Positions 25,931 through 64,000 of a DNA stretch of 64,000 nucleotides are shown in pieces (positions within the stretch are counted from its first letter, which is position 1; every line of letters starts with the position of its first letter). The notes beneath the pieces were generated by a model that saw only the letters and a list, made by a program, of their open reading frames with translations, was not told the DNA's origin and did not search any database. The position numbers were made by a program, and so were the translations under genes. The stretch is from Hemiscyllium ocellatum (Eukaryota), in contig NW_026869102.1 in assembly GCF_020745735.1 (NCBI RefSeq), positions 56,367 to 120,366 on the forward strand. Direction: 5' to 3'.

Positions 25931-26164
25931 GTACCTCATCTCCCACAGCCCCTCCTATTCAGGAAGGGAATCCCCACAGCCAGCTCCCTAGGGTTGGAGA
26001 GGTGGGTCATAAACTCCCCCAGAGCTAGTCATTGTTCTACAGTCAGCCTGTGTGAGGGGGGGTCGGGGTGGGGGGGGAAGTGCAGGGAGGGACGTAAATC
26101 CAGAGTCTCTGCTTCTGATCACTATCCACGGGTTAGACTGAGAGAATCAACCAAGGGCAACTAA

Positions 26165-34399: not shown

Positions 34400-36060
34400 C
34401 TGTCCTCACGAGGTCAGGGAGCAGGGACAGTGTCTGGGGGAAGAGCCCCCTCCCTCAGACAGGGAGCAGGGACAGTGTCCGGGGTGGGGTTAACCCCCTC
34501 CCTCAGACAGGGAGCAGGGACAGTGTCCGGGGTGGGGTTAACGCCCTCCCTCAGACAGGGAGCAGGGACAGTGTCCGGGGGAAGAGCCCCCTCCCTCAGA
34601 CAGGGAGCAGGGACAGTGTCCGGGGTGGGGTTAACCCCCTCCCTCAGACGGGGAGCAGGGACAGTGTCTGGGGGGGAAGAGCCCCCTCCCTCAGACAGGG
34701 AGCAGGGACAGTGTCCGGGGTGGGGTTAACCCCCTCCCTCAGACAGGGAGCAGGGACAGTGTCTGGGGGGGGGAAGAACCCCTTCCCTCAGACAGGGAGC
34801 AGGGACAGTGTCTGGGGGGGGGGAAGAACCCCTTCCCTCAGACAGGGAGCAGGGACAGTGTCTGGGGGGGGAAGAACCCCTTCCCTCAGACAGGGAGCAG
34901 GGACAGTGTCCGGGGTGGGGTTAACCCCCTCCCTCAGACAGGGAGCAGGGAATGTGTCCAGGGTGGGGTTAACCCCCTCCCTCAGACAGGGAGCAGGGAA
35001 TGTGTCCAGGGTGGGGTTAACCCCCTCCCTCAGACAGGGAGCAGGGACAGTGTCCGGGGTGGGGTTAACCCCCTCCCTCAGACAGGGAGCAGGGACAGTG
35101 TCCGGGGGAAGAGCCCCCTCCCTCAGACAGGGAGCAGGGACTGTGTCCGGGGTGGGGTTAACCCCCTCCTTCAGACAGGGAGCAGGGACTGTGTCCGGGG
35201 TGGGGTTAAAGCCCTCCCTCAGACAGGGAGCAGGGACAGTGTCCGGGGGAAGAGCCCCCTCCCTCAGACAGGGAGCAGGGACAGTGTCCGGGGTGGGGTT
35301 AACCCCCTCCCTCAGACAGGGAGCAGGGACTGTGTCCGGGGGAAGAGCCCCCTCCCTCAGACAGGGAGCAGGGACTGTGTCCGGGGTGGGGTTAACCCCC
35401 TCCCTCAGACAGGGAGCAGGGACGGTGTCTGGGGGAGGAGCCCCCTCCCTCAGACAGGGAGCAGGGAATGTGTCCGGGGTGGGGTTAACCCCCTCCCTCA
35501 GACAGGGAGCAGGGACAGTGTCCGGGGTGGTGTTAACCCCCTCCCTCAGACAGGGAGCAGGGAATGTGTCCGGGGTGGGGTTAACCCCCTCCCTCAGACA
35601 GGGAGCAGGGAATGTGTCCGGGGTGGGGTTAACCCCCTCCCTCAGACAGGGAGCAGGGAATGTGTCCGGGGTGGGGTTAACCCCCTCCCTCAGACAGGGA
35701 GCAGGGAATGTGTCCGGGGTGGGGTTAACCCCCTCCCTCAGACAGGGAGCAGGGAATGTGTCCAGGGTGGGGTTAACCCCCTCCCTCAGACAGGGAGCAG
35801 GGACTGTGTCCGGGGTGGGGTTAACCTCCTCCCTCAGACAGGGAGCAAGGACAGTGTCCGGGGGAGGAGCCCCCTCCCTCAGACAGGGAGCAGGGACTGT
35901 GTCCGGGGTGGGGTTAACCCCCTCCCTCAGACAGGGAGCAAGGACTGTGTCCGGGGTGGGGTTAGCCCCCTCCCTCAGACAGGGAGCAAGGACAGTGTCC
36001 GGGGGAGGAGCCCCCTCCCTCAGACAGGGAGCAGGGACAGTGTCTGGGGTGGGGTGGGGT
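34400..36060. repeat. Minisatellite of about 35 copies with 45- and 48-bp units
   Basis: Units acagggagcagggacagtgtccgggggaagagccccctccctcag (45 bp) and acagggagcaggga(c/a)(a/t)gtgtccggggtggggttaaccccctccctcag (48 bp). The 48-bp type contains the perfect palindrome GGGGTTAACCCC. The ORFs 34288-36087 (+) and 34788-36116 (-) are artefacts of the 3n period. Confidence 0.9.
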
Positions 36061-37190
36061 AAACCCCTTCCCGCTCTCTCTCTGTAACCGACCTGTAGAG
36101 AAATAACGTACGACATCCTGCAGCTCTGGGGGGTCAGTGTCTGTGTACTGCTGCCAGTCAGTGTTCAGTCTGTGTACGGGCGGAGGTGGGGGTGGTGGGG
36201 AGGTTGAGGAGGTGGAGGTGGGGTCTGGACTGGGTGCTCCCAGTCGCCCTGGATCTGCCATCTCCTGCCCACAGTTCAGTCCAGAACGTTGTTCCCCTCG
36301 CGCCCCATCTCCGGCGCCCATTCCCGGCTCAGTGATGAAAGACAGGCCCCACTGGTTGTGGAAGATGGCACCCAGTCCCTGGCCCAGCCTGGGGCCTGAT
36401 TCGTGGTCATCGCTGGCTCCTCTGGTCCCGGTGGGCTCTGCGCTGAGATTCTCCTTCACCTTACTGGCGTAACTGATCCGGGGCAGGATTCGGGCGGTGC
36501 TGCTCCCCACTGGGAATGTGGCTGGGGGTTTGAACAACATCCAGCCGTGGGGCTGCTCTCCCTCTTCCTCCTCCTCCCCAGCGCCCCCGCTCCCCTCTGC
36601 CTCTTCTAGGGACTCAGCCCCTTCGCCACCGTCTCGTGTTCTGGTTAGCCGGTTCCCTGGGGGCCGGGGTTTCCACCTGCGGGTGAATCCATTAACGGCG
36701 CCGTCGCCAGGCTTCCTCTCGAACCTGCGCCCGTAGACCCTCGGCTCACCGCGGGGCTGGAAGTGACCACTGTTCCTCACCCTACCGTCTCCCGCCTGCA
36801 GCCTCCCGGGCGTCGCCTGGCGGTAGTATCCACCCTCAGGACCTGGGAGCCTCCCCAGGGACCGGAAGGAGCTGCCTTCACTTCCCAGAGCCCGGCCCAC
36901 GGGCCGATAGTATCCACTGCCTCCTCCTCCTCCTCCTCCTCCACCACCGCCGTCTAACGCCCGACGGTACTTTGTACCAACGCCATTGGCTGAGCCCAGG
37001 CTCCTGTGTTCATCCACCTCGCGATTGACCGAGTTCTCCATGTCCCTCTTCAGCACCGTATCTGTGACACAGCCCCAGACCTACAGGCAGGGAGACAGAC
37101 AGACAGACAACACCTGGGCATTGACACCAGAGAGACAGGCCACTGAAGGCAGCTACCATCATACTTCCCTTCATCAGGCAGAGCATGGGG
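36060..37190. other. GC-rich, CpG-island-like unique segment bordering the satellite. It includes (GGTGG)n/(CCT)n low-complexity stretches and a CCAAT box. A second copy is present at 2185-2740.
   Basis: High CpG density (cgcg, ccgg, gcgc throughout). ccattggct at about 36983. The 364-aa minus-strand ORF (35962-37056) is not frame-conserved relative to the second copy: indels of 7 and 1 bp. Confidence 0.5.
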
Positions 37191-40100
37191 GAGAGGGGGT
37201 GGGACGTCCTGCTGGTCGGGAATGGGAGGTGCGACGCCCTGCTGGTTGGGTATAGGAGATGGGACTTCCTGCTGGTCGATTATAGGAGATGGGACTTCCT
37301 GCTGGTCGATTATAGGAGATGGGACTTCCTGCTGGTCTATTATAGGAGATGGGACGTCCCGCTGGTCGGGTATAGCAGATGGGACGTCCCGCTGGTCCGG
37401 TATAGCAGATGGGACGTCCCACTGGTCCGGTATAGGAGATGGGGTGTCCCACTGGTCCGGTATAGGAGATGGGACGCCCCGCTGGTCCGGTATAGCAGAT
37501 GGACGTCCCACTGGTCTATTATAGGAGATGGGACGTCCCGGTGGTCAGGTATAGGAGATTGGACGTCCTGCTGGTCGGGTATAGGGGATGGGACGCCCTG
37601 CTGGTCGGGTATAGGAGATGGGACGTCCCGCTGGTCGGGTATAGGGGATGGGACGTCCCGCTGGTCGGGTATAGGGGATGGGACGTCCCGCTGGTCGGGT
37701 ATAGGGGATGGGACGTCCCGCTGGTCTATTATAGGAGATGGGAAGTCCCGCTGGTCGGGTATAGGAGATGGGACGTCCCGCTGGTCGGGTATAGGAGATG
37801 GGACGTCCCGCTGGTCGGGTATAGCAGAAGGGACGTCCCGCTGGTCCGGTATAGCAGAAGGGACGTCCCGCTGGTCCGGTATAGCAGAAGGGACGTCCTG
37901 CTGGTCGGGTATAACAGGCGGGACATCCCGGTGGTCGGGTATAGCAGATGGGACGTCCCGGTGGTCAGGTATAGCAGATGGGACGTCCCGCTGGTCTATT
38001 ATAGAAGATGGGACGTCCTGCTGGTCGGGTATAGCAGGCGGGACGTCCCGCTGGTCGGGTATAGGAGATGGGACGTCCCGGTGGTCGGGTATAGCAGATG
38101 GGACGTCCCGCTGGTCGGGTATAGGAGATGGGACGTCCCGCTGGTCCGGTATAGGAGATGGGACGTCCCGCTGGTCCGGTATAGCAGGAGGGACGTCCCG
38201 CTGGTCGGGTATAGGAGATGGGACGTCCCGCTGGTCGGGTATAGGAGGCGGGACGTCCCGCTGGTCGAGTATAGGAGATGGGACGTCCCACTGGTCGAGT
38301 ATAGGAAATGGGACGTCCCACTGGTCTATTATAGCAGATGGGACGCCCCGCTGGTCTATTATAGGAGGTGGGAACCCCTGCTGGTCGGGTATAGCAGGCG
38401 GGACGTCCCGCCGGTGCAGTATAGAAGATGGGACGCCCCGCTGGTCGGGTATAGGAGATGGGACGTCCCGCTGGTCGGGTATAGGGGATGGGACGTCCCG
38501 CTGGTCCGGTATAGGAGATGGGACGTCCCGCTGGTCCGGTATAGGGGATGGGACGTCCCGCTGGTCGGGTATAGGGGATGGGACGCCCCACTGGTCGGGT
38601 ATAGGAGATGGGACGTCCTGCTGGTCGGGTATAGCAGGCGGGACGTCCCGCTGGTCGGGTATAGGGGATGGGACGCCCCGCTGGTCCGGTATAGGGGATG
38701 GGACGTCCCGCTGGTCGGGTATAGGGGATGGGACGTCCCGCTGGTCCGGTATAGGGGATGGGACGTCCCGCTGGTCGGGTATAGGAGATGGGACGTCCTG
38801 CTGGTCCGGTATAGGGGATGGGACGTCCTGCTGGTCGGGTATAGCCGATGGGACGTCGTGCTGGTCCGGTATAGGAGATGGGACGTCCCGCTGGTCGGGT
38901 ATAGCCGATGGGACGTCGTGCTGGTCCGGTATAGGAGATGGGACGTCCCGCTGGTCGGGTATAGGAGATGGGACGTCCTGCTGGTCCGGTATAGCAGGCG
39001 GGACGCCCCGCTGGTCCGGTATAGGGGATGGGACGTCCCGCTGGTCCGGTATAGGGGATGGGATGTCCTGCTGGTCTATTATAGCAGATGGGACGTCCCG
39101 CTGGTCGGGTATAGCAGGCGGGACGTCCCGCTGGTCGGGTATAGGGGATGGGACGTCCCGCTGGTCGGGTATAGGGGATGGGACGTCCCGCTGGGCCGGT
39201 GTAGGGGATGGGACGTCCCGCTGGTCTATTATAGGAGATTGGACGTCCCGCTGGTCGGGTATAGGGGATGGGACGTCCTGCTGGTCTATTATAGGAGATT
39301 GGACGCTCCGCTGGTCGGGAATAGGAGATGGGACGTCCCACTGGTCTATTATAGGAGATGGGACGTCCCGCTGGTCGGGTATAGCAGATGGGACGTCCCG
39401 CTGGTTGGGTATAAGAGATGGGACGTCCCGCTGGTCTATTATAGGGGATGGGACGTCCTGCTGGTCCGGTATAGGAGATGGGACGTCCTGCTGGTCGGGT
39501 ATAGGGGATGGGACGTCCCGCTGGTCGGGTATAGGGGATGGGACGTCCCGCTGGTCGGGTATAGGGGATGGGATGCCCCGCTGGTCGGGTATAGGGGATG
39601 GGACGTCCTGCTGGTCGGGTATAGGGGATGGGACGTCCCGCTGGTCCGGTATAGGAGATGGGACGTCCTGCTGGTCGGGTATAGGGGATGGGACGTCCCG
39701 CTGGTCCGGTATAGGGGATGGGACGCCCCGCTGGTCCGGTATAGGGGATGGGACGTCCCGCTGGTCGGGTATAGGGGATGGGACGTCCCGCTGGTCGGGT
39801 ATAGGGGATGGGACGCCCCGCTGGTCGGGTATAGGAGATGGGCCGTCCTGCTGGTCGGGTATAGCAGGCGGGACGTCCCGCTGGTCGGGTATAGGAGATG
39901 GGCCGTCCTGCTGGTCGGGTATAGCAGGCGGGACGTCCCGCTGGTCGGGTATAGGGGATGGGACGCCCCGCTGGTCCGGTATAGGGGATGGGACGTCCTG
40001 CTGGTCTATTATAGCAGATGGGACGCCGCGCTGGTCGGGTATAGCAGGCGGGACGCCCCGCTGGTCGGGTATAGCAGGCGGGACGCCCCGCTGGTCGGGT

Positions 40101-43100
40101 ATAGGGGATGGGACGTCCTGCTGGTCTATTATAGCAGATGGGACGTCCCGCTGGTCCGGTATAGGGGATGGGACGTCCCGCTGGTCTATTATAGCAGATG
40201 GGACGCCCCGCTGGTCGGGTATAGGGGATGGGACGTCCCGCTGGTCGGGTATAGGGGATGGGACGTCCTGCTGGTCTATTATAGGAGATGGGACGTCCCG
40301 CTGGTCGGGTATAGGAGATGGGACGTCCCGCTGGTCGGGTATAGGGGATGGGACGTCCTACTGGTCTATTATAGGAGATGGGACGTCCCGCTGGTCCGGT
40401 ATAGGAGATGGGACGTCCTGCTGGTCCGGTATAGGAGATGGGACGTCCTGCTGGTCCGGTATAGGGGATGGGACGTGCCGCTGGTCGGGTATAGGGGATG
40501 GGACGTCCTGCTGGTCGGGTATAGGAGATGGGACGTCCTGCTGGTCTATTATAGGAGATGGGACGTCCCGCTGGTCGGGTATAGGGGATGGGACGTCCCG
40601 CTGGTCCGGTATAGGGGATGGGACGTCCTGCTGGTCTATTATAGGAGATGGGACGTCCCGCTGGTCGGGTATAGGAGATGGGACGTCCCGCTGGTCGGGT
40701 ATAGGAGATGGGACGTCCCGCTGGTCGGGTATAGGGGATGGGACGTCCTGCTGGTCTATTATAGGAGATGGGACGTCCCGCTGGTCGGGTATAAGAGATG
40801 GGATGTCCTGCTGGTCTATTATAGGAGATGGGACGTCCCGCTGGTCCGGTATAGGAGATGGGACGTCCTGCTGGTCCGATATAGGAGATGGGACGTCCCG
40901 CTGGTCGGGTATAAGAGATGGGACGTCCCGCTGGTCTATTATAGGAGATGGGACGTCCCGCTGGTCCGGTATAGGAGATGGGACGTCCCGCTGGTCGGGT
41001 ATAGGGGATGGGACGTCTCGCTGGTCAGGTATAGGGGATGGGATGTCCCGCTGGTCAGGTATAGCAGGCGGGACGTCCCGCTGGTCGGGTATAAGAGATG
41101 GGACGTCCCGCTGGTCCAGTATAGGAGATGGGACGTCCTGCTGGTCCGGTATAGGGGATGGGACGTCCCGCTGGTCCGGTATAGGAGACGGGACGTCCCG
41201 CTGGTCCGGTATAGGGGATGGGACGTCCCGCTGGTCCGGTATAGGGGATGGGACGTCCTGCTGGTCGGGTATAGCAGGCGGGACGTCCCGCTGGTCGGGT
41301 ATAGCAGGCGGGACGTCCCGCTGGTCGGGTATAGGGGATGGGACGTCCCGCTGGTCGGGTATAGGAGATGGGACGTCCTGCTGGTCCGGTATAGCAGGCG
41401 GGACGCCCCGCTGGTCCGGTATAGGGGATGGGACGTCCCGCTGGTCCGGTATAGGGGATGGGATGTCCTGCTGGTCTATTATAGCAGATGGGACGTCCCG
41501 CTGGTCGGGTATAGCAGGCGGGACGTCCCGCTGGTCGGGTATAGGGGATGGGACGTCCCGCTGGTCGGGTATAGGAGATGGGACGTCCCGCTGGTCGGGT
41601 ATAGGGGATGGGACGTCCCGCTGGGCCGGTGTAGGGGATGGGACGTCCTGCTGGTCTATTATAGGAGATTGGACGTCCCGCTGGTCGGGTATAGGGGATG
41701 GGACGTCCTGCTGGTCTATTATAGGAGATTGGACGCTCCGCTGGTCGGGTATAGGAGATGGGACGTCCCACTGGTCTATTATAGGAGATGGGACGTCCCG
41801 CTGGTCGGGTATAGCAGATGGGACGTCCCGCTGGTTGGGTATAAGAGATGGGACGTCCCGCTGGTCTATTATAGGGGATGGGACGTCCGGCTGGTCCGGT
41901 ATAGGAGATGGGACGTCCTGCTGGTCGGGTATAGGGGATGGGACGTCCCGCTGGTCGGGTATAGGGGATGGGACGTCCCGCTGGTCGGGTATAGGGGATG
42001 GGATGCCCCGCTGGTCGGGTATAGGGGATGGGACGTCCTGCTGGTCGGGTATAGGGGATGGGACGTCCCGCTGGTCCGGTATAGGAGATGGGACGTCCTG
42101 CTGGTCGGGTATAGGGGATGGGACGTCCCGCTGGTCCGGTATAGGGGATGGGACGCCCCGCTGGTCCGGTATAGGGGATGGGACGTCCCGCTGGTCGGGT
42201 ATAGGGGATGGGACGTCCCGCTGGTCGGGTATAGGGGATGGGACGCCCCGCTGGTCGGGTATAGGAGATGGGCCGTCCTGCTGGTCGGGTATAGCAGGCG
42301 GGACGTCCCGCTGGTCGGGTATAGGAGATGGGCCGTCCTGCTGGTCGGGTATAGGGGATGGGACGCCCCGCTGGTCCGGTATAGGGGATGGGACGTCCTG
42401 CTGGTCTATTATAGCAGATGGGACGCCGCGCTGGTCGGGTATAGCAGGCGGGACGCCCCGCTGGTCGGGTATAGCAGGCGGGACGCCCCGCTGGTCGGGT
42501 ATAGGGGATGGGACGTCCTGCTGGTCTATTATAGCAGATGGGACGTCCCGCTGGTCCGGTATAGGGGATGGGACGTCCCGCTGGTCTATTATAGCAGATG
42601 GGACGTCCCGCTGGTCGGGTATAGGGGATGGGACGTCCCGCTGGTCGGGTATAGGGGATGGGACGTCCTGCTGGTCTATTATAGGAGATGGGACGTCCCG
42701 CTGGTCGGGTATAGGAGATGGGACGTCCCGCTGGTCGGGTATAGGGGATGGGACGTCCTACTGGTCTATTATAGGAGATGGGACGTCCCGCTGGTCCGGT
42801 ATAGGAGATGGGACGTCCTGCTGGTCCGGTATAGGAGATGGGACGTCCTGCTGGTCCGGTATAGGGGATGGGACGTGCCGCTGGTCGGGTATAGGGGATG
42901 GGACGTCCTGCTGGTCGGGTAAAGGAGATGGGACGTCCTGCTGGTCTATTATAGGAGATGGGACGTCCCGCTGGTCGGGTATAGGGGATGGGACGTCCCG
43001 CTGGTCCGGTATAGGGGATGGGACGTCCTGCTGGTCTATTATAGGAGATGGGACGTCCCGCTGGTCGGGTATAGGAGATGGGACGTCCCGCTGGTCGGGT

Positions 43101-46100
43101 ATAGGGGATGGGACGTCCTGCTGGTCTATTATAGGAGATGGGACGTCCCGCTGGTCGGGTATAAGAGATGGGACGTCCTGCTGGTCTATTATAGGAGATG
43201 GGACGTCCCGCTGGTCCGGTATAGGAGATGGGACGTCCTGCTGGTCCGATATAGGAGATGGGACGTCCCGCTGGTCGGGTATAAGAGATGGGACGTCCTG
43301 CTGGTCTATTATAGGAGATGGGACGTCCCGCTGGTCCGGTATAGGAGATGGGACGTCCTGCTGGTCCGGTATAGGGGATGGGACGCCCCGCTGGTCGGGT
43401 ATAGGAGATGGGACGTCCTGCTGGTCCGGTATAGGAGATGGGACGTCCCGCTGGTCGGGTATAGGGGATGGGACGTCTCGCTGGTCAGGTATAGGGGATG
43501 GGATGTCCCGCTGGTCAGGTATAGCAGGCGGGACGTCCCGCTGGTCGGGTATAAGAGATGGGACGTCCCGCTGGTCCAGTATAGGAGATGGGACGTCCTG
43601 CTGGTCCGGTATAGGGGATGGGACGTCCCGCTGGTCCGGTATAGGAGACGGAACGTCCCGCTGGTCCGGTATAGGGGATGGGACGTCCCGCTGGTCCGGT
43701 ATAGGGGATGGGACGTCCTGCTGGTCGGGTATAGGAGATGGGACGTCCCGCTGGTCGGGTATAGCAGGCGGGACGTCCCGCTGGTCGGGTATAGGGGATG
43801 GGACGTCCCGCTGGTCGGGTATAGGGGATGGGAACCCCTACTGGTCGGGTATAGGGGATGGGACGTCCCGCTGGTCAGGTATAGGGGATGGGACGTCCCG
43901 CTAGTCAGGTATAGCAGGCGGGACGTCCCGCTGGTCGGGTATAGCAGGCGGGACGTCCCGCTGGTCGGGTATAGCAGGCGGGACGTCCCGCTGGTCGGGT
44001 ATAGGAGATGGGACGTCCTGCTGGTCGGTTATAGGAGATGGGACGTCCCGCTGGTCCGGTATAGGGGATGGGACGTCTCGCTGGTCGGGTATAGCAGGCG
44101 GGACGTCCCGCTGGTCGGGTATAGGAGATGGGACGTCCCGCTGGTCCGGTATAGGGGATGGGACGCCTGCTGGTCCGGTATAGGAGATGGGACGTCCCGC
44201 TGGTCCGGTATAGCAGGCGGGACGTCCCGCTGGTCGGGTATAGGGGATGGGACGTCCTGCTGGTCGGGTATAGGAGATGGGAACCCCTACTGGTCGGGTA
44301 TAGCGGATGGGACGTCCCGCTGGTCGGGTATAGGGGATGGGACGTCCCGCTGGTCGGGTATAGCAGGCGGGACGTCCCGCTGGTCGGGTATAAGAGATGG
44401 GACGTCCTGCTGGTCGGGTATAGGAGATGGGACGTCCTGCTGGTCCGGTATAGGAGATGGGACGTCCCGCTGGTCGGGTATAGCAGGCGGGACGTCCCGC
44501 TGGTCGGGTATAGCAGGCGGGACGTCCCGCTGGTCGGGTATAGCAGGCGGGACGTCCCGCTGGTCGGGTATAGGAGATGGAACGCCCCGCTGGTCGGGTA
44601 TAGGAGATGGAACGCCCCGCTGGTCGGGTATAGAAAGATGGGACGCCCCGCTGGTCGGGTATAGGAGATGGGACGTCCGGCTGGTCGGGTATAGCAGATG
44701 GGACGCCCCGCTGGTCCGGTATAGCAGATGGGACGTCCCGCTGGTCTATTATAGCAGATGGGACGTCCCGCTGGTCCGGTATAAGAGATGGGACGTCCCG
44801 CTGGTCTATTATAGGAGATGGGACATCCCGCTGGTCTATTATAGGAGATGGGACGTCCCGCTGGTCGGGTATAGGGGATGGGACGTCCTGCTGGTCTATT
44901 ATAGCAGATGGGAGGCCCCGCTGGTCGGGTATAGGGGATGGGACGCCCCGCTGGTCCGGTATAGGGGATGGGACGTCCCGCTGGTCCGGTATAGGGGATG
45001 GGACGTCCTGCTGGTCTATTATAGGAGATGGGACGTCCCGCTGGTCGGGTATAGGAGATGGGACGTCCCGCTGGTCCGGTATAGGGGATGGGACGTCCTG
45101 CTGGTCTATTATAGAAGATGGGACGTCCCGCTGGTCGGGTATAAGAGATGGGACGTCCTGCTGGTCTATTATAGGAGATGGGACGTCCCGCTGGTCCGGT
45201 ATAGGAGATGGGACGTCCTGCTGGTCCGGTATAGGAGATGGGACGTCCCGCTGGTCGGGTATAGGAGATGGGATGTCCCGCTGGTCGGGTATAGGGGATG
45301 GGACGTCCCGCTGGTCCGGTATAGGGGATGGGACGTCCCGCTGGTCCAGTATAGGGGATGGGATGTCCCGCTGGTCGGGTATAGCAGGCGGGACGTCCCG
45401 CTGGTCGGGTATAGGAGATGGGACGTCCCGCTGGTCGGGTATAGGGGATGGGACGTCCTACTGGTCTATCATAGGAGATGGGACGTCCCGCTGGTCCGGT
45501 ATAGGAGATGGGACGTCCCGCTGGTCCGGTATAGGAGATGGGACGTCCTGCTGGTCCGGTATAGGGGATGGGACGTCCCGCTGGTCGGGTATAGGGGATG
45601 GGATGCCCCGCTGGTCGGGTATAGGGGATGGGACGTCCTGCTGGTCGGGTAAAGGAGATGGGACGTCCTGCTGGTCTATTATAGGAGATGGGACGTCCCG
45701 CTGGTCGGGTATAGGGGATGGGACGTCCCGCTGGTCCGGTATAGGGGATGGGACGTCCTGCTGGTCTATTATAGGAGATGGGACGTCCCGCTGGTCGGGT
45801 ATAGGAGATGGGACGTCCCGCTGGTCGGGTATAGGGGATGGGACGTCCTGCTGGTCTATTATAGGAGATGGGACGTCCCGCTGGTCGGGTATAAGAGATG
45901 GGACGTCCTGCTGGTCTATTATAGGAGATGGGACGTCCCGCTGGTCCGGTATAGGAGATGGGACGTCCTGCTGGTCCGATATAGGAGATGGGACGTCCCG
46001 CTGGTCGGGTATAAGAGATGGGACGTCCTGCTGGTCTATTATAGGAGATGGGACGTCCCGCTGGTCCGGTATAGGAGATGGGACGTCCCGCTGGTCCGGT

Positions 46101-52100: not shown

Positions 52101-55100
52101 TATAGGGGATGGGACGTCCCGCTGGTCTATTATAGCAGATGGGAGGCCCCGCTGGTCGGGTATAGGGGATGGGACGCCCCGCTGGTCCGGTATAGGGGAT
52201 GGGACGTCCCGCTGGTCCGGTATAGGGGATGGGACGTCCTGCTGGTCTATTATAGGAGATGGGACGTCCCTCTGGTCCGGTATAGGGGATGGGACGTCCT
52301 GCTGGTCCATTATAGGAGATGGGACGTCCCGCTGGTCGGGTATAAGAGATGGGACGTCCTGCTGGTCTATTATAGGAGATGGGACGTCCCGCTGGTCCGG
52401 TATAGGAGATGGGACGTCCTGCTGGTCCGGTATAGGAGATGGGACGTCCCGCTGGTCCGGTATAGGAGATGGGATGCCCCGCTGGTCGGGTATAGGAGAT
52501 GGGACGTCCCGCTGGTCCGGTATAGGGGATGGGACGTCCCGCTGGTCGGGTATAGGGGATGGGACGTCCCGCTGGTCCGGTATAGCAGGCGGGACGTCCC
52601 GCTGGTCGGGTATAGGGGATGGGACGTCCCGCTGGTCGGGTATAGGAGATGGGAACCCCTACTGGTCGGGTATAGCAGATGGGACGTCCCGCTGGTCGGG
52701 TAGAGGGGATGGGACGTCCCGCTGGTCGGGTATAGCAGGCGGGACGTCCCGCTGGTCGGGTATAGCAGGCGGGACGTCCCGCTGGTCGGGTATAAGAGAT
52801 GGGACGTCCTGCTGGTCCGGTATAGGAGATGGGACGTCCTGCTGGTCCGGTATAGGGGATGGGACGTCCCGCTGGTCGGGTATAGCAGGCGGGACGTCCC
52901 GCTGGTCGGGTATAGGAGATGGAACGCCCCGCTGGTCGGGTATAGCAGATGGGACGTCCCGCTGGTCGGGTATAGGAGATGGGACGTCCCGCTGGTCTAT
53001 TATAGTAGATGGGACGTCCTGCTGGTCGGGAAAAGGGGATGGGACGTCCCGCTGGCCGGGTATAGGGGATGGGACGTCCCGCTGGTCCAGTATAGGAGAT
53101 GGGACGTACCGCTGGTCCGGTATAGGGGATGGGACGTCCCGCTGGTCCGGTATAGGGGATGGGACGTCCCGCTGGTCCGGTATAGGGGATGGGACGTCCC
53201 GCTGGTCTATTATAGCAGATGGGACGTCCCGCTGGTCCGGTATAGGGGATGGGACGTCCCGCTGGTCTATTATAGCAGATGGGACGCCCCGCTGGTCGGG
53301 TATAGGGGATGGGACGTCCCGCTGGTCCGGTATAGGGGATGGGACGTCCCGCTGGTCTATTATAGCAGATGGGACGTCCCGCTGGTCCGGTATAGGGGAT
53401 GGGACGTCCTGCTGGTCTATTATAGCGGATGGGACGCCCCGCTGGTCGGGTATCGGGGATGGAACGTCCCGCTGGTCCGGTATAGGGGATGGGACGTCCC
53501 GCTGGTCGGGTATAGCAGATGGGACGTCCCGCTGGTCGGGTATAGGAGATGGGACATCCCACTGGTCGGGTATAGCAGGCGGGACGTCCCGCTGGTCCGG
53601 TATAGGGGATGGGACGCCCCGGTGGTCGGGTATAGCAGATGGGACGTCCTGCTGGTCGGGTGTAGGAGATGGGACGTCCCGCTGGTCTGGTATAGGAGAT
53701 GGGACGTCCCGCTGGTCGGGTATAGCAGGCGGGACGTCCCGCTGGTCCGGTATAGGGGATGGGACGCCCTGGTGGTCGGGTATAGGAGATGGGAACCCCT
53801 ACTGGTCGGGTATAGCAGATGGGACGTCCCGCTGATCGGGTATAGCAGGCGGGACGTCCCGCTGGTCGGGTATAGGAGATGGAACGCCCCGCTGGTCGGG
53901 TATAGCAGGCGGGACGTCCCGCTGGTCGGGTATAGGAGATGGAACGCCCCGCTGGTCGGGTATAGGGGATGGGACGTCCCGCTGGTCGGGTATAGGGGAT
54001 GGGACGTCCCGCTGGTCTATTATAGGAGATGGGACGTCCCGCTGGTCGGGTATAGGAGATGGGACGTCCCGCTGGTCGGGTATAGGAGATGGGACGTCCT
54101 GCTGGTCCGGTATAGGAGATGGAACGTCCCGCTGGTCGGGTATAGGAGATGGGATGCCCCGCTGGTCGGGTATAGGAGATGGGACGTCCTGCTGGTCCGG
54201 TATAGGGGGCGGGACGTCCCGCTGGTCGGGTATAGCAGGCGGGACGTCCCGCTGGTCGGGTATAGCAGGCGGGACGTCCCGCTGGTCGGGTATAGGGGAT
54301 GGGACGTCCCGCTGGTCGGGTATAGGAGATGGGACATCCCGCTGGTCGGGTATAGCAGGCGGGACGTCCCGCTGGTCCGGTATAGGGGATGGGACGCCCC
54401 GGTGGTCGGGTATAGGGGATGGGAACCCCTACTGGTCGGGTATAGCAGATGGGACGTCCCGCTGGTCGGGTATAGCAGGCGGGACGTCCCGCTGGTCGGG
54501 TATAGCAGGCGGGACGTCCCGCTGGTCGGGTATAGGAGATGGAACGCCCCGCTGGTCGGGTATAGCAGATGGGACGTCCCGCTGGTCGGGTATTGGGGAT
54601 GGGACGTCCTGCTGGTCGGGTATAGGGGATGGGACGTCCTGCTGGTCGGGTATAAGAGATGGGACGTCCTGCTGGTCTATTATAGGAGATGGGACGTCCT
54701 GCTGGTCCGGTATAGGGGATGGGACGTCCTGCTGGTCGGGTATAAGAGATGGGACGTCCTGCTGGTCTATTATAGGAGATGGGACGTCCCGCTGGTCCGG
54801 TATAGGAGATGGGACGTCCTGCTGGTCCGGTATAGGAGATGGAACGTCCCGCTGGTCGGGTATAGGAGATGGGATGCCCCGCTGGTCGGGTATAGCAGAT
54901 GGGACGTCCCGCTGGTCGGGTACAGGGGATGGGACGTCCCGCTGGTCGGGTATAGGGGATGGGACGTCCCGCTGGTCTATTATAGGAGATGGGACATCCC
55001 GCTGGTCGGGTATAGGAGATGGGACGTCCCGCTGGTCGGGTATAGGAGATGGGACGTCCCGCTGGTCCGGTATAGGGGATGGGACGTCCCGCTGGTCTAT

Positions 55101-58100
55101 TATAGCAGATGGGACGTCCCGCTGGTCCGGTATAGGGGATGGGACGTCCTGCTGGTCTATTATAGCAGATGGGACGCCCCGCTGGTCGGGTATAGGGGAT
55201 GGGACGTCCCGCTGGTCCGGTATAGGGGATGGGACTTCCTGCTGGTCGGGTATAAGAGATGGGACGTCCTGCTGGTCTATTATAGGAGATGGGACGTCCC
55301 GCTGGTCCGGTATAGGAGATGGGACGTCCTGCTGGTCCGGTATAGGAGATGGAACGTCCCGCTGGTCGGGTATAGGAGATGGGATGCCCCGCTGGTCGGG
55401 TATAGGAGATGGGACGTCCCGCTGGTCGGGTATAGGAGATGGGACGTCCCGCTGGTCCGGTATAGGGGATGGGACGTCCCGCTGGTCTATTATAGCAGAT
55501 GGGAGGCCCCGCTGGTCGGGTATAGGGGATGGGACGCCCCGCTGGTCCGGTATAGGGGATGGGACGTCCCGCTGGTCCGGTATAGGGGATGGGACGTCCT
55601 GCTGGTCTATTATAGGAGATGGGACGTCCCTCTGGTCCGGTATAGGGGATGGGACGTCCTGCTGGTCCATTATAGGAGATGGGACGTCCCGCTGGTCGGG
55701 TATAAGAGATGGGACGCCCTGCTGGTCTATTATAGGAGATGGGACGTCCCGCTGGTCCGGTATAGGAGATGGGACGTCCTGCTGGTCCGGTATAGGAGAT
55801 GGGACGTCCCGCTGGTCCGGTATAGGAGATGGGATGCCCCGCTGGTCGGGTATAGGAGATGGGACGTCCCGCTGGTCCGGTATAGGGGATGGGACGTCCC
55901 GCTGGTCGGGTATAGGGGATGGGACGTCCCGCTGGTCCGGTATAGCAGGCGGGACGTCCCGCTGGTCGGGTATAGGGGATGGGACGTCCCGCTGGTCGGG
56001 TATAGGAGATGGGAACCCCTACTGGTCGGGTATAGCAGATGGGACGTCCCGCTGGTCGGGTAGAGGGGATGGGACGTCCCGCTGGTCGGGTATAGCAGGC
56101 GGGACGTCCCGCTGGTCGGGTATAGCAGGCGGGACGTCCCGCTGGTCGGGTATAAGAGATGGGACGTCCTGCTGGTCCGGTATAGGAGATGGGACGTCCT
56201 GCTGGTCCGGTATAGGGGATGGGACGTCCCGCTGGTCGGGTATAGCAGGCGGGACGTCCCGCTGGTCGGGTATAGGAGATGGAACGCCCCGCTGGTCGGG
56301 TATAGGAGATGGGACGTCCCGCTGGTCGGGTATAGGAGATGGGACGTCCCGCTGGTCTATTATAAGAGATGGGACGTCCTGCTGGTCGGGAAAAGGGGAT
56401 GGGACGTCCCGCTGGTCGGGTATAGGGGATGGGACGTCCCGCTGGTCCGGTATAGGAGATGGGACGTACCGCTGGTCCGGTATAGGGGATGGGACGTCCC
56501 GCTGGTCCGGTATAGGGGATGGGACGTCCCGCTGGTCTATTATAGCAGATGGGACGTCCCGCTGGTCCGGTATAGGGGATGGGACGTCCCGCTGGTCTAT
56601 TATAGCAGATGGGACGCCCCGCTGGTCGGGTATAGGGGATGGGACGTCCCGCTGGTCCGGTATAGGGGATGGGACGTCCCGCTGGTCTATTATAGCAGAT
56701 GGGACGTCCCGCTGGTCCGGTATAGGGGATGGGACGTCCTGCTGGTCTATTATAGCGGATGGGACGCCCCGCTGGTCGGGTATAGGGGATGGAACGTCCC
56801 GCTGGTCCGGTATAGGGGATGGGACGTCCCGCTGGTCCGGTATAGCAGATGGGACGTCCTGCTGGTCGGGTATAGGAGATGGGACGTCCCGCTGGTCTGG
56901 TATAGGAGATGGGACATCCCGCTGGTCGGGTATAGCAGGCGGGACGTCCCGCTGGTCCGGTATAGGGGATGGGACGCCCCGGTGGTCGGGTATAGCAGAT
57001 GGGACGTCCTGCTGGTCGGGTGTAGGAGATGGGACGTCCCGCTGGTCTGGTATAGGAGATGGGACATCCCGCTGGTCGGGTATAGCAGGCGGGACGTCCC
57101 GCTGGTCCGGTATAGGGGATGGGACGCCCTGGTGGTCGGGTATAGGAGATGGGAACCCATACTGGTCGGGTATAGCAGATGGGACGTCCCGCTGGTCGGG
57201 TATAGCAGGCGGGACGTCCCGCTGGTCGGGTATAGGAGATGGAACGCCCCGCTGGTCGGGTATAGCAGGCGGGACGTCCCGCTGGTCGGGTATAGGAGAT
57301 GGAACGCCCCGCTGGTCGGGTATAGGGGATGGGACGTCCCGCTGGTCGGGTATAGGGGATGGGACGTCCCGCTGGTCTATTATAGGAGATGGGACGTCCC
57401 GCTGGTCGGGTATAGGAGATGGGACGTCCCGCTGGTCGGGTATAGGAGATGGGACGTCCTGCTGGTCCGGTATAGGAGATGGAACGTCCTGCTGGTCGGG
57501 TATAGGAGATGGGATGCCCCGCTGGTCGGGTATAGGAGATGGGACGTCCTGCTGGTCGGGTATAGGAGATGGGACGTCCTGCTGGTCCGGTATAGGGGGC
57601 GGGACGTCCCGCTGGTCGGGTATAGCAGGCGGGACGTCCCGCTGGTCGGGTATAGCAGGCGGGACGTCCCGCTGGTCGGGTATAGGGGATGGGACGTCCC
57701 GCTGGTCGGGTATAGGAGATGGGACATCCCGCTGGTCGGGTATAGCAGGCGGGACGTCCCGCTGGTCCGGTATAGGGGATGGGACGCCCCGGTGGTCGGG
57801 TATAGGAGATGGGAACCCCTACTGGTCGGGTATAGCAGATGGGACGTCCCGCTGGTCGGGTATAGCAGGCGGGACGTCCCGCTGGTCGGGTATAGGAGAT
57901 GGAACGCCCCGCTGGTCGGGTATAGCAGATGGGACGTCCCGCTGGTCGGGTATAGGGGATGGGACGTCCTGCTGGTCGGGTATAGGGGATGGGACGTCCC
58001 GCTGGTCTATTATAGGAGATGGGACATCCCGCTGGTCGGGTATAGGGGATGGGACGTCCCGCTGGTCCGGTATAGGGGATGGGACGTCCTGCTGGTCGGG

Positions 58101-61100
58101 TATAAGAGATGGGACGTCCTGCTGGTCTATTATAGGAGATGGGACGTCCTGCTGGTCCGGTATAGGGGATGGGACGTCCTGCTGGTCGGGTATAAGAGAT
58201 GGGACGTCCTGCTGGTCTATTATAGGAGATGGGACGTCCCGCTGGTCCGGTATAGGAGATGGGACGTCCTGCTGGTCCGGTATCGGAGATGGAACGTCCC
58301 GCTGGTCGGGTATAGGAGATGGGATGCCCCGCTGGTCGGGTATAGGAGATGGGACGTCCCGCTGGTCGGGTACAGGGGATGGGACGTCCCGCTGGTCGGG
58401 TATAGGGGATGGGACGTCCCGCTGGTCTATTATAGGAGATGGGACATCCCGCTGGTCGGGTATAGGAGATGGGACGTCCCGCTGGTCGGGTATAGGAGAT
58501 GGGACGTCCCGCTGGTCCGGTATAGGGGATGGGACGTCCCGCTGGTCTATTATAGCAGATGGGACGTCCCGCTGGTCCGGTATAGGGGATGGGACGTCCT
58601 GCTGGTCTATTATAGCAGATGGGACGCCCCGCTGGTCGGGTATAGGGGATGGGACGTCCCGCTGGTCCGGTATAGGGGATGGGACTTCCTGCTGGTCGGG
58701 TATAAGAGATGGGACGTCCTGCTGGTCTATTATAGGAGATGGGACGTCCCGCTGGTCCGGTATAGGAGATGGGACGTCCTGCTGGTCCGGTATAGGAGAT
58801 GGAACGTCCCGCTGGTCGGGTATAGGAGATGGGACGTCCCGCTGGTCGGGTATAGGAGATGGGACGTCCCGCTGGTCCGGTATAGGGGATGGGACGTCCC
58901 GCTGGTCTATTATAGCAGATGGGAGGCCCCGCTGGTCGGGTATAGGGGATGGGACGCCCCGCTGGTCCGGTATAGGGGATGGGACGTCCCGCTGGTCCGG
59001 TATAGGGGATGGGACGTCCTGCTGGTCTATTATAGGAGATGGGACGTCCCTCTGGTCCGGTATAGGGGATGGGACGTCCTGCTGGTCCATTATAGGAGAT
59101 GGGACGTCCCGCTGGTCGGGTATAAGAGATGGGACGTCCTGCTGGTCTATTATAGGAGATGGGACGTCCCGCTGGTCCGGTATAGGAGATGGGACGTCCC
59201 GCTGGTCCGGTATAGGAGATGGGATGCCCCGCTGGTCGGGTATAGGAGATGGGACGTCCCGCTGGTCCGGTATAGGGGATGGGACGTCCCGCTGGTCGGG
59301 TATAGGGGATGGGACGTCCCGCTGGTCCGGTATAGCAGGCGGGACGTCCCGCTGGTCGGGTATAGGGGATGGGACGTCCCGCTGGTCGGGTATAGGAGAT
59401 GGGAACCCCTACTGGTCGGGTATAGCAGATGGGACGTCCCGCTGGTCGGGTAGAGGGGATGGGACGTCCCGCTGGTCGGGTATAGCAGGCGGGACGTCCC
59501 GCTGGTCGGGTATAGCAGGCGGGACGTCCCGCTGGTCGGGTATAAGAGATGGGACGTCCTGCTGGTCCGGTATAGGAGATGGGACGTCCTGCTGGTCCGG
59601 TATAGGGGATGGGACGTCCCGCTGGTCGGGTATAGCAGGCGGGACGTCCCGCTGGTCGGGTATAGCAGGCGGGACGTCCCGCTGGTCGGGTATAGGAGAT
59701 GGAACGCCCCGCTGGTCGGGTATAGCAGATGGGACGTCCCGCTGGTCGGGTATAGGAGATGGGACGTCCCGCTGGTCTATTATAGTAGATGGGACGTCCC
59801 GCTGGTCTGGTATAGGAGATGGGACATCCCGCTGGTCGGGTATAGCAGGCGGGACGTCCCGCTGGTCCGGTATAGGGGATGGGACGCCCCGCTGGTCGGG
59901 TATAGGGGATGGGACGTCCCGCTGGTCCGGTATAGGGGATGGGACTTCCTGCTGGTCGGGTATAAGAGATGGGACGTCCTGCTGGTCTATTATAGGAGAT
60001 GGGACGTCCCGCTGGTCCGGTATAGGAGATGGGACGTCCTGCTGGTCCGGTATAGGAGATGGAACGTCCCGCTGGTCGGGTATAGGAGATGGGACGTCCC
60101 GCTGGTCGGGTATAGGAGATGGGACGTCCCGCTGGTCCGGTATAGGGGATGGGACGTCCCGCTGGTCTATTATAGCAGATGGGAGGCCCCGCTGGTCGGG
60201 TATAGGGGATGGGACGCCCCGCTGGTCCGGTATAGGGGATGGGACGTCCCGCTGGTCCGGTATAGGTGATGGGACGTCCTGCTGGTCTATTATAGGAGAT
60301 GGGACGTCCCTCTGGTCCGGTATAGGGGATGGGACGTCCTGCTGGTCCATTATAGGAGATGGGACGTCCCGCTGGTCGGGTATAAGAGATGGGACGTCCT
60401 GCTGGTCTATTATAGGAGATGGGACGTCCCGCTGGTCCGGTATAGGAGATGGGACGTCCCGCTGGTCCGGTATAGGAGATGGGATGCCCCGCTGGTCGGG
60501 TATAGGAGATGGGACGTCCCGCTGGTCCGGTATAGGGGATGGGACGTCCCGCTGGTCGGGTATAGGGGATGGGACGTCCCGCTGGTCCGGTATAGCAGGC
60601 GGGACGTCCCGCTGGTCGGGTATAGGGGATGGGACGTCCCGCTGGTCGGGTATAGGAGATGGGAACCCCTACTGGTCGGGTATAGCAGATGGGACGTCCC
60701 GCTGGTCGGGTAGAGGGGATGGGACGTCCCGCTGGTCGGGTATAGCAGGCGGGACGTCCCGCTGGTCGGGTATAGCAGGCGGGACGTCCCGCTGGTCGGG
60801 TATAGGAGATGGAACGCCCCGCTGGTCGGGTATAGCAGATGGGACGTCCCGCTGGTCGGGTATAGGAGATGGGACGTCCTGCTGGTCGGGAAAAGGGGAT
60901 GGGACGTCCCGCTGGTCGGGTATAGCAGGCGGGACGTCCCGCTGGTCGGGTATAGCAGGCGGGACGTCCCGCTGGTCCGGTATAGGGGATGGGACGTCCC
61001 GCTGGTCCGGTATAGGAGATGGGACGTACCGCTGGTCCGGTATAGGGGATGGGACGTCCCGCTGGTCCGGTATAGGGGATGGGACGTCCCGCTGGTCTAT

Positions 61101-64000
61101 TATAGCAGATGGGACGTCCCGCTGGTCCGGTATAGTGGATGGGACGTCCTGCTGGTCTATTATAGCAGATGGGACGCCCCGCTGGTCCGGTATAGGGGAT
61201 GGGACGTCCTGCTGGTCTATTATAGCGGATGGGACGCCCCGCTGGTCGGGTATAGGGGATGGAACGTCCCGCTGGTCCGGTATAGGGGATGGGACGTCCC
61301 GCTGGTCGGGTATAGCAGATGGGACGTCCTGCTGGTCGGGTATAGGAGATGGGACGTCCCGCTGGTCTGGTATAGGAGATGGGACATCCCGCTGGTCGGG
61401 TATAGCAGGCGGGACGTCCCGCTGGTCCGGTATAGGGGATGGGACGCCCCGGTGGTCGGGTATAGCAGATGGGACGTCCTGCTGGTCGGGTGTAGGAGAT
61501 GGGACGTCCCGCTGGTCTGGTATAGGAGATGGGACATCCCGCTGGTCGGGTATAGCAGGCGGGACGTCCCGCTGGTCCGGTATAGGGGATGGGACGCCCT
61601 GGTGGTCGGGTATAGGAGATGGGAACCCCTACTGGTCGGGTATAGCAGATGGGACGTCCCGCTGGTCGGGTATAGCAGGCGGGACGTCCCGCTGGTCGGG
61701 TATAGGAGATGGAACGCCCCGCTGGTCGGGTATAGCAGGCGGGACGTCCCGCTGGTCGGGTATAGGGGATGGGACGTCCCGCTGGTCGGGTATAGGAGAT
61801 GGGACATCCCGCTGGTCGGGTATAGCAGGCGGGACGTCCCGCTGGTCCGGTATAGGGGATGGGACGCCCCGGTGGTCGGGTATAGGAGATGGGAACCCCT
61901 ACTGGTCGGGTATAGCAGATGGGACGTCCCGCTGGTCGGGTATAGCAGGCGGGACGTCCCGCTGGTCGGGTATAGCAGGCGGGACGTCCCGCTGGTCGGG
62001 TATAGGAGGTGGAACGCCCCGCTGGTCGGGTATAGCAGATGGGACGTCCCGCTGGTCGGGTATAGGGATGGGACGTCCTGCTGGTCGGGTATAGGGGATG
62101 GGACGTCCCGCTGGTCTATTATAGGAGATGGGACATCCCGCTGGTCGGGTATAGGGGATGGGACGTCCCGCTGGTCCGGTATAGGGGATGGGACGTCCTG
62201 CTGGTCGGGTATAAGAGATGGGACGTCCTGCTGGTCTATTATAGGAGATGGGACGTCCTGCTGGTCCGGTATAGGAGATGGAACGTCCCGCTGGTCGGGT
62301 ATAGGAGATGGGATGCCCCGCTGGTCGGGTATAGGAGATGGGACGTCCCGCTGGTCGGGTATAGGAGATGGGACGTCCCGCTGGTCCGGTATAGGGGATG
62401 GGACGTTCTGCTGGTCTATTATAGCAGATGGGAGGCCCCGCTGGTCGGGTATAGGGGATGGGACGCCCCGCTGGTCCGGTATAGGGGATGGGACGTCCCG
62501 CTGGTCCGGTATAGGGGATGGGACGTCCTGCTGGTCTATTATAGGAGATGGGACGTCCCGCTGGTCCGGTATAGGGGATGGGACGTCCTGCTGGTCTATT
62601 ATAGGAGATGGGACGTCCCGCTGGTCGGGTATAAGAGATGGGACGTCCTGCTGGTCTATTATAGGAGATGGGACGTCCCGCTGGTCCGGTATAGGAGATG
62701 GGACGTCCTGCTGGTCCGGTATAGGAGATGGGACGTCCCGCTGGTCCGGTATAGGAGATGGGATGCCCCGCTGGTCCGGTATAGGAGATGGGACGTCCCG
62801 CTGGTCCGGTATAGGGGATGGGACGTCCCGCTGGTCCGGTATAGGGGATGGGACGTCCCGCTGGTCCGGTATAGCAGGCGGGACGTCCCGCTGGTCCGGT
62901 ATAGCAGGCAGGACGTCCCGCTGGTCGGGTATAGGGGATGGGACGTCCCGCTGGTCGGGTATAGCAGATGGGACGTCCCGCTGGTCGGGTATAGCAGACG
63001 GGACGTCCCGCTGGTCGGGTATAAGAGATGGGACGTCCTGCTGGTCCGGTATAGGAGATGGGACGTCCTGCTGGTCCGGTATAGGGGATGGGACGTCCCG
63101 CTGGTCGGGTATAGTAGGCGGGACGTCCCGCTGGTCGGGTATAGCAGATGGGACGTCCCGCTGGTCGGGTATAGGAGATGGAACGCCCCGCTGGTCGGGT
63201 ATAGCAGATGGGACGTCCCGCTGGTCGGGTATAGCAGATGGGACGTCCCGCTGGTCTATTATAGTAGATGGGACGTCCTGCTGGTCGGGAAAAGGGGATG
63301 GGACGTCCCGCTGGTCGGGTATAGGGGATGGGACGTCCCGCTGGTCCGGTATAGGAGATGGGACGTACCGCTGGTCCGGTATAGGAGATGGGACGTCCCG
63401 CTGGTCTATTATAGCAGATGGGACGTCCCGCTGGTCCGGTATAGGGGATGGGACGTCCTGCTGGTCTATTATAGCAGATGGGACGTCCCGCTGGTCCGGT
63501 ATAGGGGATGGGACGTCCTGCTGGTCTATTATAGGGGATGGGACGTCCCGCTGGTCCGGTATAGGGGATGGGACGTCCCGCTGGTCGGGTATAGCAGACG
63601 GGACGTCCTGCTGGTCGGGTATAGCAGATGGGACGTCCCGCTGGTCTGGTATAGGAGATGGGACATCCCGCTGGTCGGGTATAGCAGGCGGGACGTCCCG
63701 CTGGTCCGGTATAGGGGATGGGACGCCCCGGTGGTCGGGTATAGGAGATGGGAACCCCTACTGGTCGGGTATAGCAGATGGGACGTCCCGCTGGTCGGGT
63801 ATAGCAGGCGGGACGTCCCGCTGGTCGGGTATAGGAGATGGAACGCCCCGCTGGTCGGGTATAGGGGATGGGACGTCCCGCTGGTCTATTATAGGAGATG
63901 GGACATCCCGCTGGTCGGGTATAGGAGATGGGACGTCCCGCTGGTCGGGTATAGGAGATGGGACGTCCTGCTGGTCCGGTATAGGAGATGGAACGTCCCG
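37190..64000. repeat. 30-bp tandem satellite, at least 26.8 kb and about 890 monomers, truncated by the window end. Consensus GGGACGTCCCGCTGGTCSGGTATAGGRGAT. Organised in multi-kb higher-order repeats.
   Basis: There is continuous 30-bp periodicity. Variants recur (…ctggtctattataggagat, …gggtatagcaggcg, …gggtataagagat, gggaacccctactgg…, …cgggaaaaggggat). Exact 1302-nt matches 45273-46574 and 47313-48614 define a 2040-bp (68-mer) higher-order repeat. Occasional 1-bp indels shift phase (about 37500, 44160, 44640, 49490, 62060). Confidence 0.97.

Follow-up and report, generated by a model that had tools for sequence, protein, structure and literature searches.

A giant CpG-dense 30-bp tandem array directly upstream of a NUFIP2-like coding exon in Hemiscyllium ocellatum

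The 64,000-nucleotide stretch of Hemiscyllium ocellatum DNA analysed here (contig NW_026869102.1, positions 56,367 to 120,366 of the forward strand; hereafter the window) contains a genuine, large, non-coding and CpG-dense satellite-type array of 30-bp monomers. It occupies 37200-64000 on the plus strand and begins 158 bp from the start codon of a NUFIP2-like gene. The array is probably best described as a GC/CpG-rich satellite or giant minisatellite that is specific to the Hemiscylliidae and sits directly 5' of the main coding exon of that gene, and no specific cellular function would be needed to explain it. It is newly described at sequence level, yet its type, the GC-rich satellite or minisatellite, is already known.

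Extent and internal organisation of the array

Tandem Repeats Finder (TRF), base composition and a monomer census place about 893 monomers in one array. TRF assigns it a period of 30, 893.4 copies, 87% matches, 0% indels and a score of 38450, with the consensus TGGGACGTCCCGCTGGTCGGGTATAGGAGA; its length exceeds 26.8 kb, since it is cut by the window end and continues past it. A 25-nt monomer core with up to three mismatches is matched 772 times against 0 in shuffles, and head-to-tail repetition of the kind that marks tandem satellite or minisatellite DNA is found far beyond chance. A preliminary description of this DNA had proposed a giant 30-bp satellite reaching beyond the window, which these figures bear out. 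The plus strand is G-rich, with a GC content of 0.62 and a GC skew constant at +0.31. Among the 893 monomers cut from the array 166 are distinct, and differences from the consensus average 2.43. Variation falls mostly at positions 1, 8, 11, 19-21, 27, 28 and 30, most others being more than 98% invariant, and the 30-bp register shows only five phase shifts across 26.8 kb. Variant frequencies are flat along the array and show no gradient except at its gene-proximal edge (37200-37350, plus strand), where the sequence and a three-species junction alignment reveal diverged monomers carrying CAGGA(C/A)GTCC on the gene-sense strand rather than a perfect palindrome. Canonical G-quadruplex motifs with loops of up to 7 nt are absent from the array (244 appear only when 15-nt loops are allowed), an Rfam scan of the window gave no matches, and an exact-string literature search found the monomer core in no paper. 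A metagenome scan with a 17-mer returned at least 120 loci, each a single match and none tandem; these are uninformative because a 17-mer is too short and matches by chance in a huge GC-rich collection.

Pairs of monomers separated by lags of 1-60 have an identity of 0.870-0.879, which is that of random pairs (0.874), and the regular higher-order repeat that is a common, not universal, trait of centromeric satellites is absent at lags up to 60 monomers, with only irregular block duplicates at longer lags. To label the array as devoid of higher order would nevertheless be wrong. Whereas regular periodicity is missing, about 65% of the array lies within kilobase-scale block duplicates whose lags range from 42 to 159 monomers (1.3-4.8 kb), and 141 different six-monomer strings recur, against 0 in shuffles. 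Blocks were selected at a mean identity of at least 96.5% in 30-monomer windows and then merged, the merged blocks averaging 95-97% identity against a background of 87%. Examples are a duplication at 44759-48868 (plus strand), in which 69 monomers reappear 68 monomers (2040 bp) further on at 97.3% identity and 56 consecutive identical monomers recur 2040 bp apart (44939 and 46979), and a set of serial duplications at 51660-61019 (plus strand), 95-96% identical, whose lags are either 112-115 monomers (about 3.4 kb) or 42 (1.26 kb). The longest perfectly repeated block measures 1.68 kb. Variants also travel together. The change of GGG to TAT at positions 19-21 behaves as a multi-base haplotype (Cramer's V 0.89-0.95), and G at position 30 is coupled to C at position 1 of the next monomer; such coupling implies that variants spread by amplification, not by recurrent mutation. 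Irregular block duplications are the trace expected from repeated unequal exchange and thus constitute indirect evidence for it, and the array in Hemiscyllium has grown through repeated kilobase-scale block duplications of this kind. All results on internal organisation derive from one haplotype.

Long arrays are error-prone in assembly, this one reaches the window end, and it contains a perfect repeat of 1.68 kb, all of which would suit an artefact in which its length or internal order arose by over-expansion of, or a mis-join within, a shorter array. However, the 166 distinct monomers stand in a non-periodic order and the block duplicates occur at several different lags, for which reason the array has the look of real sequence and not of a consensus that was collapsed or looped. 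Moreover, the assemblies of two Chiloscyllium species, made independently, enter the same repeat at the same junction, and we give an artefact a very slim chance.

Long open reading frames (ORFs) run through the array, among them 54154-62094 (2646 aa) and 37185-43904 (2239 aa), and encode decapeptides of the GDGTSRWSGI and RPAGRPIPYT types. Five of the six frames are largely open, a consequence of the stop-poor unit, and the ORFs are long because the period is divisible by 3. A real decapeptide-repeat protein, expressed for example from the 2646-aa ORF, could be read from these open frames, but it has next to no chance. The variable monomer positions show no third-codon-position periodicity, every frame is interrupted by the five phase shifts, and both strands are open at once, as is typical of stop-poor repeats. 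In addition, a 550-aa chimeric five-frame query found no match at E < 1e-5 among 5.8 billion protein clusters that include NCBI shark annotations. A coding repeat was rejected on these grounds, and the preliminary description was correct to regard the ORFs of more than 2,000 aa as by-products of the period; its forecast that they would be mis-annotated as proteins shows no sign of having come true among those clusters.

The array junction in Hemiscyllium and other sharks

The preliminary description had set the array immediately next to KIF22, whose last coding ORF in fact ends 11 kb away, at 26164. The true neighbour is the NUFIP2-like gene on the minus strand. Its ORF (37056-35962) matches Pfam NUFIP2 (PF15293) at E 2e-21 and is 100% identical to the NCBI entry 'FMR1-interacting protein NUFIP2-like isoform X2 [Hemiscyllium ocellatum]', an identity that by itself marks the window as epaulette shark DNA. 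The main coding exon, residues 1-310, spans 36112-37041 with its ATG at 37041, and a spacer of unique sequence at 37042-37199 on the same strand separates the start codon from the array. A splice-acceptor-like sequence, ctgcctgtag/gt, ends at 37081, 39 nt ahead of the ATG. Both Chiloscyllium species retain it, and Stegostoma and S. torazame have comparable acceptor-like sequences before their ATG. On account of this conserved motif the array may lie at the 3' end of an intron within the 5' untranslated region (UTR), and we infer that its probable place is either such an intron or the stretch directly upstream of the NUFIP2-like gene.

Short contigs carry the gene in Chiloscyllium plagiosum and C. 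punctatum, and both run out, upstream of it, in a 30/31-bp repeat, at the same junction as in the window. Aligned to the Hemiscyllium monomer, the two Chiloscyllium units score 73 and 68, where the null reaches at most 30, and of the 30 positions of the Hemiscyllium gene-sense unit ACCAGCGGGACGTCCCATCTCCTATACCCG, 26 are the same in the C. plagiosum unit ACCAGCAGGACGTCCCACCTGCTGTACCCG. As all three species share the junction and a related repeat, the array predates the split between Hemiscyllium and Chiloscyllium. The diverged edge monomers of Hemiscyllium show the Chiloscyllium-like CAGGA state, and its minority states at positions 8, 11, 27 and 30 are the Chiloscyllium states, which indicates that variant frequencies shift within a common pool, that is, by concerted evolution. 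An orthologous array whose majority variants differ between species is what concerted evolution predicts, and by sequence comparison the array is orthologous within the Hemiscylliidae, specific to that family and evolving in concert.

The tail-to-tail arrangement of KIF22 and the NUFIP2-like gene is conserved further afield, in Stegostoma, S. torazame, Heterodontus and Cetorhinus, and a large array lies within 0.1-4 kb of the NUFIP2-like main exon in every examined shark with upstream sequence. In Stegostoma it is an irregular (GA)n-AAGGGACGA array split from the gene by transposon insertions, in S. torazame it consists of 22-29-bp G/GT-rich units abutting the exon, in Heterodontus of C-rich units and (AGAC)n upstream of the gene, and in Cetorhinus of 27 copies of an 83-bp unit abutting the gene. 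Homology of the Hemiscyllium monomer to the Stegostoma and S. torazame arrays did not rise above shuffles, and against the Heterodontus array it was marginal (28 against a null maximum of 25). A GGGACG likeness to the Stegostoma array was dropped, its alignment being no better than shuffles. The site 5' of the NUFIP2-like main exon is thus tandem-repeat-prone in sharks generally, with units unrelated between orders. Among the non-hemiscylliid sharks, S. torazame GTGTGTGTGTGAGGGAGTCGGT (positions 6-9908), the Cetorhinus 83-bp unit with GAGGGAGTCTGTGTTGTGTG (2951-5257) and an 81-bp intron repeat of Heterodontus (12245-14660) share GT-rich/GAGGGAGTC motifs. There may be an older orthologous array upstream of the exon in these species.

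The preliminary description had also suggested a centromeric, pericentromeric or subtelomeric satellite, which would make the array one copy of a genome-wide landmark family. The array is long enough, exceeding 26.8 kb and unbounded in the window, and the record that carries the NUFIP2-like gene is no more than 430 kb long. Short, apparently unplaced sequences carry the orthologous KIF22/NUFIP2-like pair in Stegostoma, Cetorhinus, Heterodontus and Heptranchias (77.6, 82, 199 and 25 kb, respectively), and two of them end 1.4-5.4 kb upstream of the NUFIP2-like gene, as expected in repeat-embedded regions, and the KIF22/NUFIP2-like locus seems systematically hard to assemble. High CpG content could also fit a hypomethylated centromere-like domain such as the stingray centromere (bioRxiv 10.1101/2025.06.08.657570). 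Against this, active-looking genes stand 158 bp and 11 kb away, and the orthologous locus of S. torazame is 8.86 Mb into a 147-Mb chromosome. TTAGGG dimers, sought as telomere repeats, are absent from the whole window, the far end of the array lying beyond it. The missing regular higher-order repeat also argues against such a family, as does a position fixed by one particular orthologous junction and not by a chromosome landmark, and we consider it decidedly unlikely that the array belongs to one.

The palindrome and the CpG content of the monomer

The perfect palindrome GGGACGTCCC had been described as present in every monomer and as a defining, evenly spaced feature, and the second dyad CCCGCTGGTCGGG as equally universal. 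The census contradicts both statements, for only 503 of 893 monomers (56%) hold the palindrome and 357 (40%) the dyad. Counted over the whole array, GACGTC is found 692 times and ACGT 717 times, and named variants of the palindrome are GGGACGCCCC and GGGACGTCCT. We take GGGACGTCCC to fit the NF-kB consensus GGGRNNYYCC, and GACGTC is presumably the core of the cAMP response element (CRE); both serve as leads only. Substitutions break palindrome pair 2/11 one-sidedly in 220 monomers and pair 5/8 in 128, with 0 compensatory double changes, and compensatory covariation was likewise absent from the second dyad in the census. When a 30-mer is shuffled with its composition kept, a perfect palindrome of 10 bp has P ~0.02, and any inverted repeat with a spacer of up to 8 nt has P 0.18. 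The perfect 10-mer is also missing from the Chiloscyllium units, C. plagiosum having AGGACGTCCC or GGGCGTCCC and C. punctatum AGGCCGTCCC. A dyad kept by selection would be expected to show compensatory change and conservation in orthologues, and the array displays neither. The palindrome therefore seems to belong to the variant that now prevails in Hemiscyllium and not to be an element selected for protein binding or cruciform formation.

Folding gives a similar impression of the cruciform-forming sites that had been postulated. The hairpin potential of a lone monomer is not significant (z -0.5 and -1.3 for the two strands), and since it folds no better than shuffles, cruciform extrusion from the spacer-less 10-mer is implausible. 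In single strands of five monomers, neighbouring palindromes pair with each other through a 10-bp stem and a 20-nt loop (z -1.8 to -4.1). In single-stranded DNA such pairing would favour in-register slippage or misalignment by whole monomers, and the inter-monomer hairpins would aid expansion while preserving the 30-bp phase. As a model drawn from folding, promotion of in-register slippage by these hairpins is plausible.

The array could alternatively act as a binding platform for a dimeric protein, either of bZIP type on GACGTC/ACGT or of Rel/NF-kB type, and so serve as an enhancer, insulator or boundary for the NUFIP2-like gene or KIF22. There are 503 perfect palindromes at 30-bp spacing, a palindrome is mildly improbable in the shuffles, many monomer positions are strongly invariant, the array starts 158 bp from a start codon, and arrays hold the same position in all examined sharks with upstream sequence. 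A precedent is provided by the human HRAS1 28-bp minisatellite, which is reported to bind rel/NF-kB proteins (Trepicchio & Krontiris 1992, cited in PMC3464111). Yet 44% of monomers lack the palindrome, one-sided substitutions break it and go uncompensated, the orthologous Chiloscyllium arrays are without the perfect 10-mer, and more distant sharks have unrelated units at the site. The resemblance to HRAS1 is itself marginal, at P 0.03-0.06 before multiple-test correction. We therefore regard a binding platform as unlikely.

With respect to CpG, the array has an observed/expected ratio (o/e) of 0.98, against 0.31 in the KIF22 flank and 0.16 and 0.36 in two neighbouring minisatellites. The sequence thresholds of a CpG island (o/e >0.6, GC >50%, >200 bp) are exceeded over 26.8 kb, at an o/e of 0.98 and a GC content of 0.62. 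Three to four CpGs per monomer had been reported. The consensus indeed has 3, whereas the observed mean is lower, at 2.59, with 86% of consensus CpGs retained. The rare-variant spectrum (variants seen three times or fewer) yielded 37 events, too few for a methylation test, and was for this reason replaced by per-position transition counts. Transitions at CpG positions have a median count of 27, against 4.5 for other transitions (P 0.06), and occur on more distinct monomer backgrounds (9.5 against 2, P 0.02). This excess suggests a mild signature of methyl-CpG decay and would argue for some methylation. The high CpG content would then reflect a CpG-rich founder monomer combined with homogenisation faster than decay, which is more likely to lie behind it than proven hypomethylation.

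Several observations weigh against the reading as a satellite without specific function. The positions invariant in more than 98% of monomers (GGGA, CTGGTC, TATAG) and the core GACCAGC.GG.CGTCCCA common to the three hemiscylliid species could both reflect constraint in place of recency, and the persistence of arrays on the 5' side of the gene across deeply diverged sharks could mean that they are useful. Chance would produce the palindrome somewhat rarely, and another minisatellite, 1 kb distant, likewise holds a perfect one. In a further reading the array itself, whatever its sequence, would be a conserved functional feature of the NUFIP2-like/KIF22 locus, acting as a CpG-dense, possibly hypomethylated and palindrome-studded chromatin boundary or as a sink for dimeric factors in a first intron or promoter. 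Such a role is suggested because arrays recur within 0.1-4 kb of the exon though their units are unrelated between orders, and because the dominant Hemiscyllium unit has gained a CpG-centred palindrome while the neighbouring minisatellite holds another. We consider it a long shot and favour the satellite or giant minisatellite that would need no specific function.

Flanking features, known repeat systems and significance

KIF22, whose presence in the window had been correctly noted, runs on the plus strand, and its coding exons, from at least residue ~49 to the end, map by tblastn to 9944-26164. The translated motor exons match PDB 6nje_A (KIF22) at E 1e-69, the next kinesin reaching 4e-31, and the terminal ORF (25691-26164) has an HHH_3 match. 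KIF22 and the NUFIP2-like gene are arranged tail-to-tail, and between KIF22 and the array lie, in turn, a 43-bp minisatellite, transposon debris, a 48-bp minisatellite and the NUFIP2-like gene. Upstream of the first mapped KIF22 exon, at about 3700-4100, is a CpG-rich stretch with several CCAAT/ATTGG boxes that probably represents the promoter and first exon of KIF22; it stands about 1 kb from, and head-to-head with, a NUFIP2-like pseudo-exon described below.

TRF places the 43-bp minisatellite (49.7 copies, 92% matches) at 26244-28353 on the plus strand, starting 80 bp past the KIF22 stop codon. It is probably in the KIF22 3' UTR and has a higher-order period of 128 bp (three units). Fragments of long interspersed nuclear element (LINE) reverse transcriptase lie between the two genes at 33775-34050 on the minus strand, for which Pfam gave no score; similar LINE elements have inserted between array and gene in Stegostoma (positions 7200-9400 of the Stegostoma sequence). 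The 48-bp minisatellite (34.6 copies by TRF; 34415-36055, plus strand) is inside or 3' of the NUFIP2-like gene. Of its roughly 35 copies, 17 contain a perfect palindrome of 12 bp, GGGGTTAACCCC (shuffle P ~0.02), and the unit also has a GGACAgTGTCC dyad. G-run/C-run dyads occur in several shark minisatellite units of this locus (20 tests on 10 units chosen post hoc gave four P values below 0.025), which hints that short dyads may favour array growth.

The NUFIP2-like protein is much shorter than human NUFIP2, with 332 aa against the 592 positions of the Pfam NUFIP2 profile, and keeps the motifs FKPP..FPV...ISYASKVKENL and IFHNQWGLSFI. A poly-Gly tract is encoded by a (GGA/GGT)n microsatellite at 36925-36951 (minus strand). 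The protein appears to be a distinct short paralogue that is also present in teleosts, frogs and hagfish.

The entire locus has a degenerate second copy with internal deletions at 1423-2765, seen by blastn (92-95%), tblastn and alignment. KIF22 pseudo-exons on the plus strand at 1423-1952 and 1955-2167 match 12709-13238 and 14084-14298 with 92-95% identity, and because of this partial copy KIF22 is not strictly single-copy here, as had been stated of it. Directly after them, inverted, comes a NUFIP2-like pseudo-exon at 2212-2581 (minus strand). The interval 2212-2760 is 92% identical to 36664-37220, and 97% identical over the junction, and homology to the main copy ends after exactly one monomer, at 2741-2765, downstream of which lie a purine/G-rich tract and then a CpG-rich CCAAT region. 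At the junction the two window copies are 97% identical, against 91-92% for either copy compared with C. plagiosum, from which the duplicate is judged to be about as old as, or younger than, the split between the genera. Given this age, a duplication breakpoint or a collapse is the likeliest reading of the single monomer, in preference to the state before expansion.

Among known systems the array can be compared with GC-rich minisatellites of the Jeffreys type, or variable number tandem repeats, of which human HRAS1 with its 28-bp unit is an example. It shares with them a unit of tens of base pairs, a G-rich strand bias, a limited set of interspersed variant repeats, a position beside or inside genes, and growth or turnover via unequal exchange or conversion, here inferred from the block duplications. 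Typical minisatellites run 0.1-20 kb, however, whereas this array exceeds 26.8 kb and 890 copies. The HRAS1 unit GGCGTCCCCTGGAGAGAAGGGGGAGTGT (PMC3464111) shares GGCGTCCC-CTGG with the array monomer, a likeness that, as noted above, is not significant. The core and chi motifs associated with hypervariable, Jeffreys-type minisatellites (taken from PMC9069542) are not distinguishable from chance. In shuffles the core GGAGGTGGGCAGGARG has P 0.15-0.72 in two Hemiscyllium units and 0.09 in C. plagiosum, and the best local match to chi GCTGGTGG has P 0.04-0.06, which we judge not significant.

The array also resembles a classical satellite under concerted evolution in the sense of the 'library' model. 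It is long and homogeneous, has a species-specific consensus and orthologues in related genera, the minority variants of one species are the majority variants of another, and its edge monomers are more diverged. It differs in being anchored to a unique gene-proximal junction and in lacking a regular higher-order repeat. The genomic context is familiar as well. The epaulette shark, H. ocellatum, has many GC-rich regions that consist to 50-100% of simple tandem repeats (bioRxiv 10.1101/2025.06.08.657570), and GC-rich tandem-repeat regions are enriched on the shorter chromosomes and the chromosome ends of sharks (PMC10620051). The present array, with two more minisatellites within 11 kb, belongs to the same species and type of region; unlike those aggregate descriptions, it is resolved here to one specific monomer whose core string is in no paper.

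Taken on the available evidence, which is that of sequence, neither a centromeric or subtelomeric role nor a protein platform is favoured, and the array looks like an ordinary if large GC-rich satellite. It opens no new kind of system. Its main value lies in annotation and as an example of rapid unit turnover. For annotation, the real neighbour of the array is the NUFIP2-like gene, and the ORFs of several thousand residues should not be called genes. For evolution, the array offers a clean, alignable, orthologous and gene-anchored case of concerted evolution with shared variant states in three hemiscylliid species. As a single site that hosts unrelated arrays across sharks, the locus would be useful for studying satellite turnover in a lineage with a reportedly very low point-mutation rate (PMC10587355).

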